From Telmatocola sphagniphila (lineage in GTDB: Bacteria; Planctomycetota; Planctomycetia; Gemmatales; Gemmataceae), in NCBI RefSeq assembly GCF_018398935.1, contig NZ_CP074694.1, positions 5,250,001 through 5,282,000 of the forward strand: a DNA stretch of 32,000 nt, in the 5' to 3' direction. Positions within the stretch are counted from its first letter, which is position 1, and each line of letters opens with the position of its first letter. Made by a program: the position numbers and the translations under genes. This document shows positions 565 through 15,235 of this stretch, piece by piece. The notes below the pieces were generated by a model, which had not been told where the DNA came from, searched no databases, and saw only the letters and a list, made by a program, of their open reading frames with translations.

Positions 565-1017
565 ATGTCCCAAATACCCTTTCCTGTTTCGAAATACCGT
601 CACTTAGTTATTATAATTTTGCTGGGTTCTCTTACCGGATGCAGCGCTCCGGATGATGGTCGAGTGGAAATCAAAGGGACCGTCCAGTTAAAAGGTAAGC
701 CGATAGCCGATGGAGCGATGATTCAGTTCTTTCCGCAGGAAAATCAAAGTACTGAAGGTTTGGTTGCTACCAAAAATGGCGCCTTCACTCTGCCGAAATC
801 GAATGGGCTCAAGCCCGGCAAATATAAAGTGACCGTGAGTCTGGGGGACGGAAAGACGGCTGTCAATCCTGTCGAAGGAGGGTCGCCGCCGGGTCCGGGT
901 GGCGGAACGAACATTATTTCCAAAGAGCTCGTTCCTTCCGATTGGAACAAAAAATCCAAACAGACTGTAACGGTGACCAAGGAAGGCCCGAATAAATTCG
1001 ACTTCGATATTCCCTGA
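565..1017 (+). CDS. Small lipoprotein, carboxypeptidase-regulatory-like (Ig-like beta-sandwich) type, typically found next to DUF1559 genes
   Basis: Signal peptide with a lipobox (LLGSLTGC|S). The motif '[25 protein letters not shown]...GAFTL...[10 protein letters not shown]' is the usual CarboxypepD_reg-like pattern. It lies directly upstream of a DUF1559 gene. Confidence 0.75.
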
Positions 1018-4231: not shown

Positions 4232-5245
4232 ATGCCGTCGCATCTGATTTTCCCGATAAACGAGAGCTCGCAGGTCGGGGAAGCGCGAAGAATGGCCAGC
4301 CGCATTGCGGAACAGGCCGGATTTGGAGAAAACGATCGCGGCAAAGTCGCTATTGTCGCCACGGAACTGGCGACGAATCTCGTCAAGCACGCGCGACAGG
4401 GCCGAATCTTGCTACGGTCTTTTAGATCCGCTGCCGAATCCATCGTGGAAATTCTGTCCATCGATTCCAATCCCGGGAAGGCGGATTTTGCCGCGTGTCT
4501 GGCAGATGGTTATTCGACTGCAGGCACGCCGGGCAATGGCCTGGGTGCAGTAAAGCGACTATCCCGGACCTTCGATTTTTATTCAGGCCCAGGCAATGGC
4601 ACTGTCATTCTGTCCCAAATCGCCCCCGGAGAATTCAAGGACACGCAACCTTCAAGATCCCATTTCGAATGGTGTGCGCTAACGGTAGCCGCACCCGGAG
4701 AAACCGTTTGCGGAGACGCCTGCGGGGTCGAAGTGAGGGAGGGTCAGCTGCGCCTGATGATTGCCGATGGACTGGGACACGGACCCGGGGCGGCGGAAGC
4801 GTCGGAGAAAGCGTGTGATGTTTTTACCCAGATGAATTCGTTTACTCCGCGAGCATTGATCGAGCTTTCGCATCGTAGTTTGATGGGCACGCGTGGAGCT
4901 GCCCTGGCAGCGGCTTCGGCCGATGCGAATTCCCAGGATCTGGAGTTTGCCGGTGTCGGAAATATCTCAGCCAGCCTTCAGAGCCTGACCGGTTCGCGGG
5001 GACTGATGTCCTACAACGGCACTCTGGGAGCTCAGTTCCGCTCGGTCCGGCAGTTGACTTATCAATGGGCGAAAGATTCGATTCTGGTACTGCATTCCGA
5101 TGGGATCAAGACACACTGGAGTTTAACCGATAATCCCGGACTGTTTCACTGTCATCCCGCCGTAATTGCCGCCGTGCTGTTGCGCGATCAGTGCCGGGGT
5201 CGAGACGACGCGTCGATCGTTGTGGTCCGCCGAAAGTCCGCTTGA
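4232..5245 (+). CDS. Fusion protein: N-terminal RsbT/RsbW-like GHKL ATPase/kinase domain + C-terminal PP2C (SpoIIE/RsbX-like) phosphatase
   Basis: N-terminal half: 'ATELATNLVKHA', 'IDSNPG', 'GNGLGAVKRLS'. C-terminal half: 'GDACGV', 'MIADGLGHGPGAAEAS', 'VLHSDGI', 'DDASIVVV' (PP2C/SpoIIE metal-binding motifs). It starts 6 nt after rsbT. Confidence 0.9.
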   Translation: MPSHLIFPINESSQVGEARRMASRIAEQAGFGENDRGKVAIVATELATNLVKHARQGRILLRSFRSAAESIVEILSIDSNPGKADFAACLADGYSTAGTPGNGLGAVKRLSRTFDFYSGPGNGTVILSQIAPGEFKDTQPSRSHFEWCALTVAAPGETVCGDACGVEVREGQLRLMIADGLGHGPGAAEASEKACDVFTQMNSFTPRALIELSHRSLMGTRGAALAAASADANSQDLEFAGVGNISASLQSLTGSRGLMSYNGTLGAQFRSVRQLTYQWAKDSILVLHSDGIKTHWSLTDNPGLFHCHPAVIAAVLLRDQCRGRDDASIVVVRRKSA

Positions 5246-9326: not shown

Positions 9327-11696
9327 ATGAATCTTTCACATGTCATTCTCGGTAGATCGAATCGTAAAAAAGCTGCTCGTCCTATTCGAAAATCCAAAAC
9401 GATCCTGAAGTTCGAGACTCTCGAAGATCGGCTGCAACCCTCAGTCAGCGTGTTTCGGCCCATCACCGAGGTCGGCAACAATGTCGCCAACCCGACTTGG
9501 GGTGTTGCGGGAACCGATTTAATTCGGCTCACGGCCGCCGCCTATTCCAACGGGATCAATTCGCCTTCCTTACCCCAGGACCAAAGCGCCCGGGCCATCA
9601 GCGACATCCTTAATAGCCAGGCCGATCCGAACAATACGGCGTTAGACAGCCAGACGGTCAATCAGCAATCCTTGTCGGATTTTGTCTATAGCTTTGGTCA
9701 ATTCATGGATCACGACATGGATCTGACTCTCGATAATGGGGCTTCCGATCCGATTGCCGTACCCGTGGGAGATCCGATCGGCGGTTCGACCGATGCTTCC
9801 CTGGCGTTCAATCTGTCGAATGTCGATCCTGCCACCGGAACGAGTACCAAAAATCCCGCGCAGGATATCACTTCCATCACGGCTTATCTGGATCTGTCGC
9901 AAATTTACGGCTCCGATCTGGCAACCGATAATGCTTTGCGAACTTTCTCGGGCGGGCAGATGAAAACCAGCACCGGCGGTCTGCCACCGCTGGATAATCT
10001 GACGTACTTCACGGCCACCCAGTTGGCCCAGATCAATGCGTCTGTTGGCGGAATGGCGAACGATGGTCCCCTTCCCGAGTCGGATCTCTATGTCACGGGG
10101 GATACCCGGGGCAACGAAAACGTGGAGTTGACCGTTCTCCAGACTTTGTTCCTGGACAATCACAATAAGATCGCCAGTGAATTGCAGAAAATGAATCCGA
10201 CCTGGAGCGATGAGCAGATTTTCCAGGAAGCCAGAAAATTAAACATCGCGGAATATCAGGCGATCGTTTACAACGAATGGATACCCGATGTCCTCGGAGC
10301 GAATGCCCTACCCGCTTATAAGGGCTATAATCCGAGCGTTAACCCCAGCATTTCCAACGAATTTTCTACGGTTGCCTTTCGCTTCGGTCATAGCTTGCTG
10401 AGTGGCAATGTGGAACGACAAGGCAACGACGGTCAGGCCGTGGCGGACAGTGTTCCTTTGTCCGAGGATTTTTTTGATTCAAGCATTCTCAATGGGGAAG
10501 GCCAGGCCTCCACGACCGATCCTGTGACGGGATTGGCAACAACCGATATTGGTGCAGTATTGAAAGGCGATGCGGATGGGGATGCCCAGGCTGAAGACCC
10601 GCAGGTTATCAATGAAGTCCGCGATCTGCTTTTCAATGAAGTGATTCCGGGTGTAGGCGGTGGTCAGGATCTCATCGCACTGGATATTCAAAGAGGTCGA
10701 GTTAATGGCATCGGTTCTTATAACCAGGTGCGCGAAGGATTAGGGCTTCCGGCCGTTACAAGTTTTGCTCAAATAACCAGCAACGTTACAGTTCAGCAGG
10801 AATTGCAGCAAGCTTACGGCAATGTGAATAATATCGATGCCTTCGAAGGCGGCCTGGCGGAAGATCCGGTTCCTGGCTCGGATGTCGGCCCCTTGTTCCA
10901 GAAGATCATGGTCAATCAGTTTGAGCGCTTGCGAGATGGGGACCGCTTCTTTTATCTGAACGAAACTTTTACCCCTCAGGAATTTCAGATTTTCGAGCAG
11001 GGCAACACCCTATCCAAGGTGATTGAAAATAACACGGACATTACCAATCTTCAAAGCGACGTGTTTATCTTCCAGGCTTCAATCAGCGGCACAGTACACG
11101 GTTCCAGCCCCAATCACGCGGGCGTTCCCGGTATCACCGTTCAACTCGAAGATACCAGCGGCGATATCCTGGCAACGACTAAAACCGGACCCGGTGGACA
11201 CTACAGCTTTAATCAGCTGAGTGGTCCCGCAGCCGATCCCTCGAATGCTTCGGGCGTTTCCGGTACGGGTTATTATCAAATCGTGCTTTCGCTGCCGACC
11301 GGTGTCAAGCAGGTGACCCAGAGTCCAGCGGCCGTCTTGATTTCAGTGAGTGGAACGAACATAACCAGTGTGGATTTTGGCATCAATATCCCAGCCCCAC
11401 CCCCGCCTCCGCCCGCCGGACACGGTGGTCCGATGGGGCAATCGGGTCCTGGCATGCTGCCGAATATTCTTCAATCCCCGCCAGCATCGACTTCCGTAAC
11501 TAACGCTTCCTCCTCGAGTATAACTAGCGCAGCGCCCGTTGTGAAATCGAATCTATCGACCCCCCTGGATTTCAATTCACTCATGCAGGGAACTCGAGTT
11601 TCGAATTCGATTCTTGAACAAAAATCGGAAATGCGGGTTTATAAATCTACCCAGGTTTCGAATTTGGCTTCCGGGTTGTTCGTCACCGGGTTGTGA
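9327..11696 (+). CDS. Animal-haem-type peroxidase (peroxidase-cyclooxygenase superfamily) with a C-terminal CarboxypepD_reg/SdrD-B-like domain and a Pro/Ser-rich tail
   Basis: Distal site 'FGQFMDHDMDLT'. 'GDTRGNENVELTVLQTLFLDNHNKIA'. Proximal His 'FRFGHSLL'. 'DLIALDIQRGRVNGIGSYNQVR' and 'LRDGDRFFYLNE'. Then 'ISGTVHG...GITVQLEDTSGDILATTKTGPGGHYSF', followed by PAPPPPPPAG. Confidence 0.9.
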   Translation: MNLSHVILGRSNRKKAARPIRKSKTILKFETLEDRLQPSVSVFRPITEVGNNVANPTWGVAGTDLIRLTAAAYSNGINSPSLPQDQSARAISDILNSQADPNNTALDSQTVNQQSLSDFVYSFGQFMDHDMDLTLDNGASDPIAVPVGDPIGGSTDASLAFNLSNVDPATGTSTKNPAQDITSITAYLDLSQIYGSDLATDNALRTFSGGQMKTSTGGLPPLDNLTYFTATQLAQINASVGGMANDGPLPESDLYVTGDTRGNENVELTVLQTLFLDNHNKIASELQKMNPTWSDEQIFQEARKLNIAEYQAIVYNEWIPDVLGANALPAYKGYNPSVNPSISNEFSTVAFRFGHSLLSGNVERQGNDGQAVADSVPLSEDFFDSSILNGEGQASTTDPVTGLATTDIGAVLKGDADGDAQAEDPQVINEVRDLLFNEVIPGVGGGQDLIALDIQRGRVNGIGSYNQVREGLGLPAVTSFAQITSNVTVQQELQQAYGNVNNIDAFEGGLAEDPVPGSDVGPLFQKIMVNQFERLRDGDRFFYLNETFTPQEFQIFEQGNTLSKVIENNTDITNLQSDVFIFQASISGTVHGSSPNHAGVPGITVQLEDTSGDILATTKTGPGGHYSFNQLSGPAADPSNASGVSGTGYYQIVLSLPTGVKQVTQSPAAVLISVSGTNITSVDFGINIPAPPPPPPAGHGGPMGQSGPGMLPNILQSPPASTSVTNASSSSITSAAPVVKSNLSTPLDFNSLMQGTRVSNSILEQKSEMRVYKSTQVSNLASGLFVTGL

Positions 11697-11699
11697 TTC

Positions 11700-12183
11700 G
11701 GCCCCGGGTCATGATCATAACCCCGGGTGTTTTAAATTCCCCGGGTATGACCCGGGTGTTTTAGCATCCCCGGGTCATACCCGGGTCTAAGATCTGGAAC
11801 CCCTCCGGGGTTCCATTTTTATGATGCCGCGGAGGGGCATCAGAGATCAGCACCGGGTGAGCGTAGCGACACCCGGTGAAATAGGGTGAATGGAAAATGG
11901 GTAACGAAACCCGGGTGTTTTAGCATCCCCGGGTCATACCCGGGTCTAAGATCTGGAACCCCTCCGGGGTACGATTTTTATGATGCCCCGGAGGGGTTTC
12001 AGAGATCAGCACCGGGTGAGCGTAGCGACACCCGGTGAAATAGGGTGAATGGAAAATGGGTAACGAACCCCGGGTGTTTTAGCATCCCCGGGTCTTCGAT
12101 CTGGAACCCCTCCGGGGTTCCATTTTTATGATGCCGCGGAGGGGCATCAGAGATCAGCACCGGGTGAGCGTAGCGACACCCGG
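11700..12183. repeat. Tandem array of a ~159-bp palindrome-rich unit (2 full copies + 1 truncated copy), preceded by short CCCCGGGT sub-repeats
   Basis: Copy 1 is 11751-11909. Copy 2 is 11910-12067. Copy 3 is 12068-12183, with an 11-nt internal deletion and a truncated 3' end. The degenerate lead-in is 11702-11750. The copies are near-identical by eye. Confidence 0.9.
11796..11821 (+). terminator. Intrinsic-terminator-like hairpin inside repeat copy 1 (also present in copy 3 at 12103-12128)
   Basis: GGAACCCC-tcc-GGGGTTCC followed by ATTTTTA, about 100 nt downstream of the peroxidase stop. Confidence 0.5.
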
Positions 12184-12218
12184 TATATATTCATAAATAC
12201 GTCAATCACCGATTTATT

Positions 12219-12617
12219 TCACACCAAGAACCGGCCATCCGTAGCGGGCTCGTACGGCCGGTCCCATTGCAATACTTCGATTCGATTCCCGTCCGGGTCG
12301 CGAATAAAAAATCGGTCGGCGCCGGGGATCTTCACCGTTTCATCCACGGGAATGCCTTGTTCCCGACAGTGCTGACGGGCGGCCATTATATCCTTCACGT
12401 GCAGGCAGAAGTGTCGCGAACTGATCGAATCCGGCTGAGGCTTCAAGAGTAGATGAAGGTATGTGCCGCCTAGATCGTACCAGACCACCACGAAATCGAA
12501 GGTTCGCGGCGGCGCGATCTCGCGCAGTCCCAATTTTTCGCCGTAGAACTCTCGCGACCGGCCCACATCGGTGATCAACACCGAACAGTGATCGATGTGT
12601 GTAACGGGAAAAGCCAT
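12219..12617 (-). CDS. VOC family protein (glyoxalase/bleomycin-resistance/dioxygenase fold)
   Basis: 'ITHIDHCSVLITDVGRSREFYGEKLGL...HFCLHV...ADRFFIRDPDGNRIEV' is the typical VOC beta-alpha-beta-beta-beta pattern with its metal ligands. Confidence 0.9.
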   Translation of the reverse strand: MAFPVTHIDHCSVLITDVGRSREFYGEKLGLREIAPPRTFDFVVVWYDLGGTYLHLLLKPQPDSISSRHFCLHVKDIMAARQHCREQGIPVDETVKIPGADRFFIRDPDGNRIEVLQWDRPYEPATDGRFLV

Positions 12618-12697
12618 GGGGGAATTATAGCCGGTCCACGGCGGTCTGCAAAATGCCTATCATAGTCTCTTGCGGAAAACCCCCGTGAAAAGACTAC

Positions 12698-15235
12698 TTG
12701 GAAGGCTCGTTGATGTCGCTGACCCCGATGATGCAGCAGTACCAAGATGCCAAGACCCGGCATCCGGGAATGATTGTCCTGTTTCGCAATGGCGATTTTT
12801 ACGAACTTTTCGAAGACGATGCCGAGCTGGGCTCCAAGCTACTGGGCTTGACGCTCACCAAGCGCGACAAGCATATTCCCATGGCCGGTTTTCCGCATCC
12901 GCAACTCGAGCGGTATGTCGGCAAGTTCATTCAAGCCGGGCATCGCGTCGCGGTGTGCGAACAGGTCGAACAGCCGGACGCCAAGACTAAGCTGATTCGC
13001 CGGGAAGTGACCCGGGTGATTACCCCGGGCACGGTCACCGAGGAAGAACTGCTCGATCCACGTCAGCCCAATTATCTGTTGGCCATTCATTACAGCAAAT
13101 CGGACATTGGCTTGGCCTGGGTCGATCTGTCGACTGGCTCGTTCTGGGCTTGCGACTCCACACCGGAAGGTTTTGCGGACGATATCACTCGAATTAATTC
13201 GGCCGAGTGCCTGATCTCCGACAGCACCGCGGAAAAACTTCCTGAGGAGCTGCAGCGAATTCTGCCGCGCACTCGCAGCCGACGACCCGATTGGACCTTT
13301 GATTCCTCGACGGCCGTGGATGCTCTGAAAAAGCATTTTGCGGTGAAAAGTTTCGCCGGTTTCGGCTTCTCGAACGATCAAGCGGGTCTGGTGGCGGCCG
13401 GGGCGATCATCTTCTATCTGCAGGAGATGCTGAAGGCCAGCCTGGGTCATGTCCGCAAGATTGAGCCCTTCTTCAGCAAGGGCTATCTGATGCTGGACGA
13501 GGTGACGCGCCGAAGTCTGGAACTGACTCGCACTATGCGTGACGGCCAGCGTGACGGCTCTTTGTTGAGCATCATCGATCGCACAGTCACACCCATGGGA
13601 GCCCGCTTTCTGCACGATGCGATCCTCGCCCCGCTAAATAATATCGAACATATCAACGCCCGACTCGATGGCGTGCAGGAACTACTGTCTGAGTTTGCCT
13701 TGCGAGGCGAGTTGCGTTTGCTGCTCGATGCGACCTCCGACCTGCAGCGATTGACCGCACGCATCAGTACTCGCAGGGCCAATCCCAAGGATTTGGCCGC
13801 CGTGCAACGGACCTTGCGGCAACTCCCCAAGTTGAAAGCTCGGCTGGCCGGTCGCAAATCGGCCTTGCTGAGTGAATTGGAAGGCCGGCTGGAACTTTGC
13901 CACGAATTACGCGAGGCCATTGACTCGACGCTGACCGATGATCCCCCTTTCAACCCCTCCGACGGCGGGGTTATTCGCACCGGCTGTAACACGCAGCTCG
14001 ACGAATTGCGAAGTCTGGCCAGTGAAGGCAAAAATTGGATCGCCCGCTACCAGGCGCAAGAAATCACGCGTTCCGGCATCAACAGTCTGAAGGTCGGCTA
14101 CAACTCGGTGTTCGGCTATTACATCGAGATCACGAATATTCATACCGCCAAGGTGCCGGCCGATTACATTCGCAAGCAGACGCTGAAAAATGCGGAGCGC
14201 TATATCACGCCGGAGTTGAAGGAATACGAAGAAAAAGTTCTGACGGCCGAGGAACGCGCCCTGGCTCTGGAACAGGAATTGTTTGCGGCTTTACGGGAGC
14301 AGGCTGCGACGGAAATTCCGCGTTTGTTGAACACCGCCGAAGTTTTGGCTCGTCTCGATTTTCTGGCCGGGCTAGCGGAACTGGCCAGCGAGCGCGGCTA
14401 TATCCGGCCGATTCTCACCGAAGAGCCGATTCTGGAAATCATCGATGGGCGCCATCCCGTGCTCGATCAAACTCTGCCGCCGGGAACGTTCGTGCCTAAC
14501 GATGCCGCTTTGCACCCGGCCGAGAGCCGCTTCTGGCTGATTACCGGGCCGAATATGTCGGGTAAGAGCACGTTCATTCGCCAGGTCGCGCTGTTGACAT
14601 TACTGGCTCATGTGGGCAGTTATGTCCCGGCCAAGTACGCGCTGGTAGGACGGACGGATCGGATATTTACTCGAGTTGGCGCCGCCGATGAGCTGAACCG
14701 CGGCCTGAGTACCTTCATGGTTGAGATGACCGAAGCGGCCAACATTCTGAATAACGCCACGCCGAACAGTCTGGTGATTCTCGATGAAATCGGTCGGGGT
14801 ACGAGTACCTATGATGGCGTTTCGCTGGCCTGGGCCATTACCGAACATCTGCACGATTACGTCGGTTGTCGGACGCTGTTCGCAACCCATTATCACGAAT
14901 TGGCTCAGTTATCCGAAACGCTGACAGCCCTGAAGAATTATCACGTGCAGGTGACCGAAGATCATCGGGAGATTGTGTTTCTGCACAAGATATCGCCCGG
15001 CTTCGCGGAGCGGAGCTATGGCATTCACGTGGCCAAGCTGGCCGGGGTGCCGGAGTCGGTTTTGAAGCGGGCCGAAGGCATTCTGACCGAACTCGAGTCG
15101 CGTCATGCATTACCGGAAGCGCAGCGGCCGAAGCTGACGGTGCCGCCGGAGAAGATGAAAAAGCTGAAGCGGGAGCGGGTGATCACCGGCCCGACTCTGT
15201 TTACGTGGGACGAGGGACCCGAGGAAACAAAATAG
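12698..15235 (+). CDS. mutS: DNA mismatch repair protein MutS
   Basis: 'TPMMQQYQDAKTRHPGMIVLFRNGDFYELFEDDA' is the mismatch-binding domain. Walker A is 'GPNMSGKSTFIRQ'. 'LDEIGRGTSTYDG' and 'FATHYHEL' are also present. The start may be the ATG at 12713 (MSLTPMM...). Confidence 0.97.
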   Translation: MEGSLMSLTPMMQQYQDAKTRHPGMIVLFRNGDFYELFEDDAELGSKLLGLTLTKRDKHIPMAGFPHPQLERYVGKFIQAGHRVAVCEQVEQPDAKTKLIRREVTRVITPGTVTEEELLDPRQPNYLLAIHYSKSDIGLAWVDLSTGSFWACDSTPEGFADDITRINSAECLISDSTAEKLPEELQRILPRTRSRRPDWTFDSSTAVDALKKHFAVKSFAGFGFSNDQAGLVAAGAIIFYLQEMLKASLGHVRKIEPFFSKGYLMLDEVTRRSLELTRTMRDGQRDGSLLSIIDRTVTPMGARFLHDAILAPLNNIEHINARLDGVQELLSEFALRGELRLLLDATSDLQRLTARISTRRANPKDLAAVQRTLRQLPKLKARLAGRKSALLSELEGRLELCHELREAIDSTLTDDPPFNPSDGGVIRTGCNTQLDELRSLASEGKNWIARYQAQEITRSGINSLKVGYNSVFGYYIEITNIHTAKVPADYIRKQTLKNAERYITPELKEYEEKVLTAEERALALEQELFAALREQAATEIPRLLNTAEVLARLDFLAGLAELASERGYIRPILTEEPILEIIDGRHPVLDQTLPPGTFVPNDAALHPAESRFWLITGPNMSGKSTFIRQVALLTLLAHVGSYVPAKYALVGRTDRIFTRVGAADELNRGLSTFMVEMTEAANILNNATPNSLVILDEIGRGTSTYDGVSLAWAITEHLHDYVGCRTLFATHYHELAQLSETLTALKNYHVQVTEDHREIVFLHKISPGFAERSYGIHVAKLAGVPESVLKRAEGILTELESRHALPEAQRPKLTVPPEKMKKLKRERVITGPTLFTWDEGPEETK
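15178..15217. repeat. Left copy of a perfect 40-bp direct repeat (inside the mutS 3' end)
   Basis: GGTGATCACCGGCCCGACTCTGTTTACGTGGGACGAGGGA is identical to 17170-17209. Confidence 0.95.

Follow-up and report, generated by a model that had tools for sequence, protein, structure and literature searches.

A tandem array of hairpin modules in Telmatocola sphagniphila is probably a REP-type cluster related to repeats that bracket a Y1 transposase-family gene

The window analysed here, a stretch of 32,000 nucleotides of Telmatocola sphagniphila (NZ_CP074694.1, positions 5,250,001 to 5,282,000), contains a palindrome-dense tandem repeat between two convergent genes, which raises the question of what kind of object such an array is and how it grew. 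A sequence-only reading of the window had listed four identities without choosing among them: a REP/BIME-like family, a stack of terminators, a protein-binding array and a structured non-coding RNA. The array fills the convergent gap, starting 6 nt past the stop of a peroxidase gene (11696) and ending 34 nt short of the stop of a VOC gene (12219), beyond which lies mutS (at 12698). Tandem Repeats Finder (TRF) bears out the 159-bp unit that had been described, with a period of 159, 2.8 copies, 92% matches and a score of 751 (11750-12184), and also reports a 29-nt sub-repeat in the lead-in (11722-11786). The hairpins, the differences between copies and an 11-nt deletion, all described earlier, were found again at exact coordinates. 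The features are as follows, in coordinates of the window:

9327..11696, + strand: animal-haem-type peroxidase gene, 789 aa (Pfam An_peroxidase, E 5.5e-130); left flank, context only
11697..11750, + strand: lead-in, with three extra CCCCGGGT arms at 11702, 11721 and 11739, at a spacing of 18-19 nt
11740-11756, + strand: extra A-type hairpin in the lead-in, CCCGGGT-atg-ACCCGGG
11751..11909, + strand: unit 1, 159 bp, made up of A, B, AT spacer, B', A' and a 30-nt tail (delimited by TRF, regex coordinates and DNA folding)
11910..12067, + strand: unit 2, 158 bp, which folds as a long B:B' hairpin (REPIN-like)
12068..12188, + strand: unit 3, truncated and without the tail; an 11-nt loss took the 3' arm of A
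11769-11785 and 11928-11944: A hairpin, CCCGGGT-cat-ACCCGGG
11796-11814, 11955-11973 and 12103-12121: B hairpin, GGAACCCC-tcc-GGGGTTCC, followed each time by ATTTTTATG
11823-11841, 11982-12000 and 12130-12148: B' hairpin
11851-11878, 12010-12037 and 12158-12184: A' hairpin, CACCGGGT-12 nt-ACCCGGTG
11879-11908 and again 12038-12067, + strand: purine-rich, locus-specific 30-nt tail
12219..12617, - strand: VOC/glyoxalase-family gene, 132 aa (Pfam Glyoxalase, E 1.8e-13); right flank, context only

A coding function was rejected because no open reading frame longer than 58 aa crosses the array, although its period is a multiple of 3, and a CRISPR array was rejected because the units are contiguous and lack spacers; both points agree with what had been read from the sequence. 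The genuine CRISPR of this genome lies at about 3.577-3.580 Mb and has a 36-nt repeat unrelated to the array. No Rfam family was found at the array, where searches of 11000-13000 and 11755-11985 gave sub-threshold chance matches to eukaryotic miRNA and snoRNA models.

The three copies fold far better than shuffled sequences (z-scores of -7.4, -8.8 and -4.9, with no shuffle as good). In folds computed for single-stranded DNA, separate local hairpins form in copies 1 and 3, and a long B:B' hairpin of 19 bp in copy 2, the alternative fold that had been thought possible for it. The five substitutions that separate copy 2 from copy 1 all fall within these two hairpins (2 in B and 3 in B'), as had also been noted, but the direction of change assumed earlier, with copy 2 as the altered one, holds only for B. 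In B', it is copies 1 and 3 that are derived: copy 2 retains the family-typical 3' arm (GGGGTTTC), and the other two carry a compensatory TT>CA change that restores the local stem with its mutated 5' arm. Copy 3 is identical to copy 1 except for two adjacent changes and the 11-nt loss between CCGGGT repeats, for which replication slippage, as proposed before, is plausible.

The internal symmetry of the unit was resolved by a covariance model, R1, of the segment B'-linker-A'. Because R1 matches both halves of the unit on opposite strands, the 159-bp unit is a REPIN-like inverted doublet followed by a tail of 30 nt, and the whole array is a row of six two-hairpin modules of about 55-60 nt in the orientations -, +, -, +, -, +, forming three inverted doublets:

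11765..11814, - strand: module 1, the A-B half, which repeats B'-A' in inverted form (R1, E 1.7e-10)
11823..11881, + strand: module 2, composed of B', AGAGATCAG and A' (R1, E 7.5e-15)
11924..11973, - strand: module 3 (R1, E 2.0e-9)
11982..12040, + strand: module 4, the nearest of the window copies to the family consensus (R1, E 5.8e-16)
12065..12121, - strand: module 5, damaged by the 11-nt loss (R1, E 1.1e-7)
12130..12188, + strand: module 6, the last, with an A' hairpin lacking its final G (R1, E 1.3e-12)

The genome, a single contig of 6.59 Mb with 52.7% G+C, was searched for further copies. The earlier reading had allowed for a unit unique to this locus; a BLAST search with the unit detects related tandem arrays near 680.6-681.2 kb, 4,959 kb, 6,060 kb and 6,066 kb, and weaker ones at 4,660-4,662, 4,684, 4,750 and 4,767-4,769 kb, and R1 extends the list by a doublet (3,030.7 kb) and a lone module (4,702.7 kb). 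BLAST and R1 together place 56 modules, in alternating orientation, at 11-12 loci. Several tandem arrays of 130-200 bp units in this genome are thus one family, including a 177-bp array (680,300-681,300) that separates argS from the 16S rRNA gene, the end of which is at about 680,300. The arrays share one plan, in the order A, a linker GCT-N4-TCTG, B, an AT-rich spacer, B', a linker CAGA-N3-yAG, and A'. The A hairpin is CCCCGGrT, a short loop and AyCCGGGG; B consists of 4 variable bp followed by CCC-TCC-GGG; B' has the same stem with the loop GGA, so that its 7-8 bp are closed by CCC-GGA-GGG; and A' is an 8-bp stem of the CCnGGGT type with a loop of 10-19 nt. The conserved B'-A' linker ends in YAG. 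At the foot of A', the window has TCAG, subfamily II (below) has ACAG, TAAG or TTAG, the family consensus has TTAG and one relative has GTAG; the relative apart, these tetranucleotides are similar to the canonical REP tag GTAG without being identical to it.

Units of one array are 91-96% identical, units of different arrays 56-88%, and two subfamilies can be distinguished. Subfamily I comprises the window and the arrays at 680, 3,030, 4,959, 6,060 and 6,066 kb; subfamily II comprises the units flanking a Y1 transposase-family gene and the loci at 4,684, 4,702, 4,750 and 4,767-4,769 kb. All subfamily II loci (4,660,600-4,769,400) are on one side of the Y1 gene and no more than 110 kb from it (binomial p = 2e-4), a clustering that suggests activity in cis. 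Subfamily I is spread across the chromosome, has an A' loop similar to the consensus of other genera, and its window units are only 61-67% identical to those that flank the Y1 gene; it may be older, or its members may be orphans of a lost paralogue.

Nearly all arrays end at their outer edges in 2-5 sub-repeats with a period of 18-22 nt, each composed of one arm of an A or A' hairpin plus 10-13 nt. Such edges are seen in the window (11702-11750) and at 681,150-681,245, 3,030,850-3,030,940, 4,959,262-4,959,340, 6,060,515-6,060,580 and 6,066,020-6,066,290. Slippage could have produced them, or they could be scars left by an enzyme.

The Y1 gene (4,661,035-4,661,484, - strand) is the only strong match to PF01797 (Y1_Tnp) in the genome (E 4e-25). 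It is bracketed by the module of the array, with two units of about 200 bp on each side and the module on the + strand to the left and on the - strand to the right. A search for a gene of the RAYT/TnpA_REP type, suggested by the sequence-only reading, thus leads to a RAYT-like Y1 gene, and of the four identities listed there the REP/BIME-like family is the one favoured by a module that is both dispersed and arranged around such a gene. The predicted protein of 150 aa has the motifs DHVH, WQ and YIRNQREHH, belongs to a strongly conserved clade with intact catalytic residues, and passes the NCBIfam IS200 model (71.8 bits). Its best relatives in the PDB are the TnpA proteins of IS200, IS608 and ISDra2; E. 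coli TnpA-REP is absent from its PDB sequence matches. Class 2 RAYT was rejected on the grounds that the motif is YIRNQREHH and not YIxxNP and that the PDB matches are of the IS200/IS608/ISDra2 type. TnpA-Y1 subclass 1.2 has been defined by Y---Q--HH, WQ and DH[IV]H motifs, a median length of 148 aa, low copy number and a conserved C-terminal tail (PMC6006769). Judged by its motifs and length, the gene fits subclass 1.2. There are two weak Y1_Tnp matches elsewhere in the genome, one a fragment with a stop codon (3,454,765-3,454,896) and the other in a 210-aa frame (5,369,690-5,369,917, 26 bits).

The association of module and gene was examined in 100 genomes of the same family, each at least 90% complete and all from other genera. 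Homologues of the Y1 protein with 35-54% identity are encoded in 60 of them, and R1 modules are present in 68, with at least 54 scored copies in some. Both occur in 54 genomes, the gene alone in 6, the module alone in 14 and neither in 26 (odds ratio 16.7; Fisher 9e-9); when R1 or the Rfam motif RF01687 is counted as the module, the corresponding numbers are 59, 1, 21 and 19 (odds ratio 53; Fisher 1.5e-8), and since these genomes are kin and many are draft metagenome-assembled genomes (MAGs), both statistics overstate independence. The gene has R1 modules on the + strand to its left and on the - strand to its right at 12 or more of 24 related Y1 loci. The module-gene-module layout was read base by base in loci L085-L087, and it also holds in L208, L210 and L217-L219. 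Outside the phylum, the same layout is found in Roseimicrobium sp. ORNL1 (a Verrucomicrobium) and in one metagenome contig, and a third contig has 71-nt tandem arrays made up of modules on both sides of its Y1 gene. The pattern of the canonical module occurs in more than 120 stretches of named records, most of them MAGs assigned to Gemmataceae, Gemmatales, Zavarzinella or Gemmata. Exact matches also occur in ten MAG stretches (L090, L093, L098, L104, L117, L122, L145, L148, L161 and L162) labelled Methylococcaceae, Victivallales, Nitrospirales, Gammaproteobacteria, Hydrogenedentota, Anaerolineae and Roseiflexaceae, which could reflect mis-binning or horizontal transfer.

Conservation of the hairpins was assessed at several depths. 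Across 16 units from 9 loci of the genome, the four local helices are 92% paired, with 13 pairs changed on both sides; none of 500 shuffles matched this, and controls in which the helices were slid gave 26-57%. The A' helix is 96% paired, with five pairs doubly changed, in 17 modules that include seven other genomes, and 99% paired in 83 modules from 41 contigs of named MAGs, an alignment that was fitted to the model and seeded by pattern and is therefore biased towards structure. Template switching can produce compensatory changes in quasi-palindromes too, even in the absence of selection. The long B:B' pairing is compatible with the alignment as well (89% paired), but as a conserved structure it was set aside, being slightly poorer than the local hairpins at the discriminating columns. 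The units at 4767-4769k moreover mix B and B' from different subfamilies; on both counts the local hairpins are primary and the long fold is optional. While the stems vary, the A' loop (GAGCGnAGCGAy) and the linker (..ATTAG) are conserved, a pattern that would be expected of a hairpin read by a protein.

A related element has been catalogued as Acido-Lenti-1 (RF01687; Weinberg et al.), an Rfam family typed as sRNA, of unknown function (PMC2864571; bioRxiv 10.64898/2026.10.21.760802). It exceeds its gathering score in 53 of 101 family genomes. A hairpin found beside other Y1 homologues, CCCAGGGC-gtt-GCCCTGGG, is part of the RF01687 motif, and is dispersed as inverted doublets of 100-120 bp. At three loci, elements of RF01687 stand inverted 5-20 nt from each end of a subclass-1.2 Y1 open reading frame, which they flank:

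L217: 117-162 (+ strand) and 633-678 (- strand)
L218: 116-161 (+ strand) and 639-684 (- strand)
L219: 85-130 (+ strand) and 840-885 (- strand)

These sister modules share with those of the window an 8-bp hairpin, a CUAA-type linker and a short hairpin with a UUC loop. The window modules differ in failing the RF01687 model (no match in the window at E up to 10, with a gathering threshold of 37 bits, and none in the genome), and their context suggests a repeat at the level of DNA, in contrast to the sRNA typing of Rfam. With this common architecture, the module of the window is a diverged sister of Acido-Lenti-1.

Taken together, these data make it likely that the array is a BIME-like cluster of REP type that was enlarged by tandem duplication in place and presumably seeded by a Y1-mediated insertion of single-stranded DNA. 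If it behaves as IS608 TnpA and E. coli TnpA-REP do, the subclass-1.2 HUH-Y1 enzyme would bind the hairpin in single-stranded DNA and cut beside the tag, and would in this way move the module. A founder doublet would have moved into the convergent gap between the peroxidase and VOC genes, where it would do no harm; together with the 30-nt tail it was then duplicated in tandem on the spot. The tail occurs at no other locus (BLAST gives only chance matches of 14-17 nt to unit positions 134-150) and yet is repeated with the doublet, so that the array grew by local tandem duplication and not by repeated insertion; slippage or unequal exchange between the CCCGGGT-rich arms is the mechanism that the duplicated tail suggests. 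Point changes, some of them compensatory, and the 11-nt slippage deletion would have followed. Termination or stabilisation of the peroxidase mRNA by the B hairpin and its + strand T-run is a possible side effect. Against this reading of the array stands the small number of copies, 56 modules that are nearly all in tandem arrays; classical REPs have hundreds of dispersed copies. The array is an ordinary kind of object, a selfish-type hairpin cluster, and not a new gene or a regulator of the peroxidase, VOC or MutS genes.

Several other explanations were weighed against this one. The array might be kept for work at the RNA level, as terminators or 3'-end stabilisers of the peroxidase and VOC genes, its kinship to transposase-associated repeats being only historical. 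There are seven terminator-like sites on the + strand of the window where 1.3 would be expected, and TTTTTAT follows B in all three units; the arrays adjoin stop codons and prefer convergent gaps, which hold 9 of 13 family occurrences and make up 19.5% of gaps overall (p = 1.4e-4, with a crude map of ORFs and counting the 16S rRNA/argS gap, which was verified with Rfam); and REP elements and BIMEs are known to affect mRNA ends (PMC3733652). Yet the VOC gene has no terminator-like site on the - strand of the window, the T-run after B is not conserved at other loci of the family, the modules lie in both orientations, one locus occupies a divergent gap, two of the gaps are those beside the Y1 gene, and a single hairpin would suffice for termination. 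The earlier suggestion of a terminator stack survives in the excess of + strand sites, whereas the T-run is not a feature of the family, so that termination is at most a side effect and its role as the reason for the array is unlikely. That the array is maintained as a landing site for some DNA-binding protein of the host, whether a nucleoid protein, a gyrase or a regulator specific for CCC-N3-GGG dyads, is less likely still. BIMEs do bind IHF and gyrase, the dyad cores CCC-TCC-GGG and CCCGGG are invariant, and the arrays are regular, but compensatory changes in the outer stem keep pairing and not a fixed recognition sequence, no candidate gene for a binding protein is linked to the arrays, and the association that was found is with an enzyme of single-stranded DNA.

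It would be surprising if each unit were a gene for a small structured RNA, in the way that Rfam files Acido-Lenti-1, and the array a tandem sRNA cluster. Stems that covary around a conserved loop and linker would suit such genes, as would the fact that the sister modules reach the gathering score of a family typed 'sRNA'; against this, no promoter-like site precedes the units, the module of the window matches neither RF01687 nor any other Rfam family, and the modules occur in both orientations, in numbers per genome that run from dozens to over 54 scored copies, and as inverted brackets around a transposase gene. As primary identities, the structured RNA and the protein-binding array of the sequence-only reading are not supported. 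A neutral duplication confined to this one locus, with neither a family nor a partner enzyme, can be dismissed almost entirely: the tail is locus-specific and the last steps of growth were local, but the architecture recurs at 11-12 loci within the genome and in 68 of the 100 related ones, which refutes it.

Among known systems, the BIME/REP and REPIN-RAYT repeats of E. coli and Pseudomonas (PMC3116915, PMC3733652, PMC3479197) are among the closest to the BIME-like cluster proposed here. Like them, the family consists of short, GC-rich extragenic hairpins, in inverted doublets able to fold into one long hairpin and in clusters of alternating orientation with two alternating spacers, sited past stop codons and mainly between convergent genes, and it includes a single-copy HUH-Y1 gene bracketed by inverted copies. 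It differs in that its module has two hairpins and a conserved linker and not one hairpin, its tag is YAG-like (TCAG; TTAG in relatives) and not GTAG, its enzyme belongs to class 1 subclass 1.2 (Y---Q--HH) and not to the class 2 RAYTs (YIxxNP), and its copy number is low, with nearly all copies in tandem arrays. The IS200/IS605 elements and their PATE and MITE derivatives belong to the same enzyme superfamily and would share the recognition of hairpins in single-stranded DNA. An IS200/IS605 insertion sequence was rejected, as the genome has one strong copy of the gene, without tnpB, flanked by inverted and not by direct hairpin modules, and copies without the gene far outnumber the gene.

Subclass 1.2 itself was described as lacking repeats ('REP: no') and as ranging over Cyanobacteria and Bacteroidetes (Quentin, Siguier, Chandler & Fichant 2018, PMC6006769). 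The partner gene agrees with that description in its length of about 148 aa, its DH[IV]H and WQ motifs, its Y motif of the YIKNQKEHH type, its conserved C-terminal tail and its low copy number, but the genes considered here are bracketed by dispersed inverted hairpin modules and occur in Planctomycetota and in a Verrucomicrobium. A conserved, dispersed hairpin partner in many genomes of the family and beyond contradicts the published property of having no repeats. Searches of the literature found nothing on REP sequences in Gemmataceae, no follow-up on subclass 1.2 of TnpAY1, and no paper describing either the link of subclass 1.2 to repeats or a kinship with Acido-Lenti-1. The kind of object is known, and the variant, with its subclass-1.2 partner and its kinship to Acido-Lenti-1, is not described in the literature searched. 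If confirmed by biochemistry, it would be a further, independent instance of a transposase domesticated with a repeat system of its own, would offer a possible explanation for RF01687, an abundant RNA motif to which no function has been assigned for 16 years, and would prompt its re-typing. Tentatively, and with somewhat more doubt than conviction, the subclass-1.2 HUH-Y1 proteins may be regarded as a third, phylum-spanning lineage of REPtrons whose partner is the two-hairpin module, with Acido-Lenti-1 as one of its branches, the array of the window as a diverged and possibly orphaned BIME, and the edge sub-repeats as scars of the enzyme and not of slippage.

The genome also contains other non-coding tandem arrays, with units of 76-294 bp according to TRF. 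Arrays of the GTTGAAAATGCAnnGCATTTTCAAC type are located at 2,606k, 4,417k and 4,620k, and arrays of the AACCGCAGAG type at 4,014k, 4,630k, 5,942k and 6,453k.
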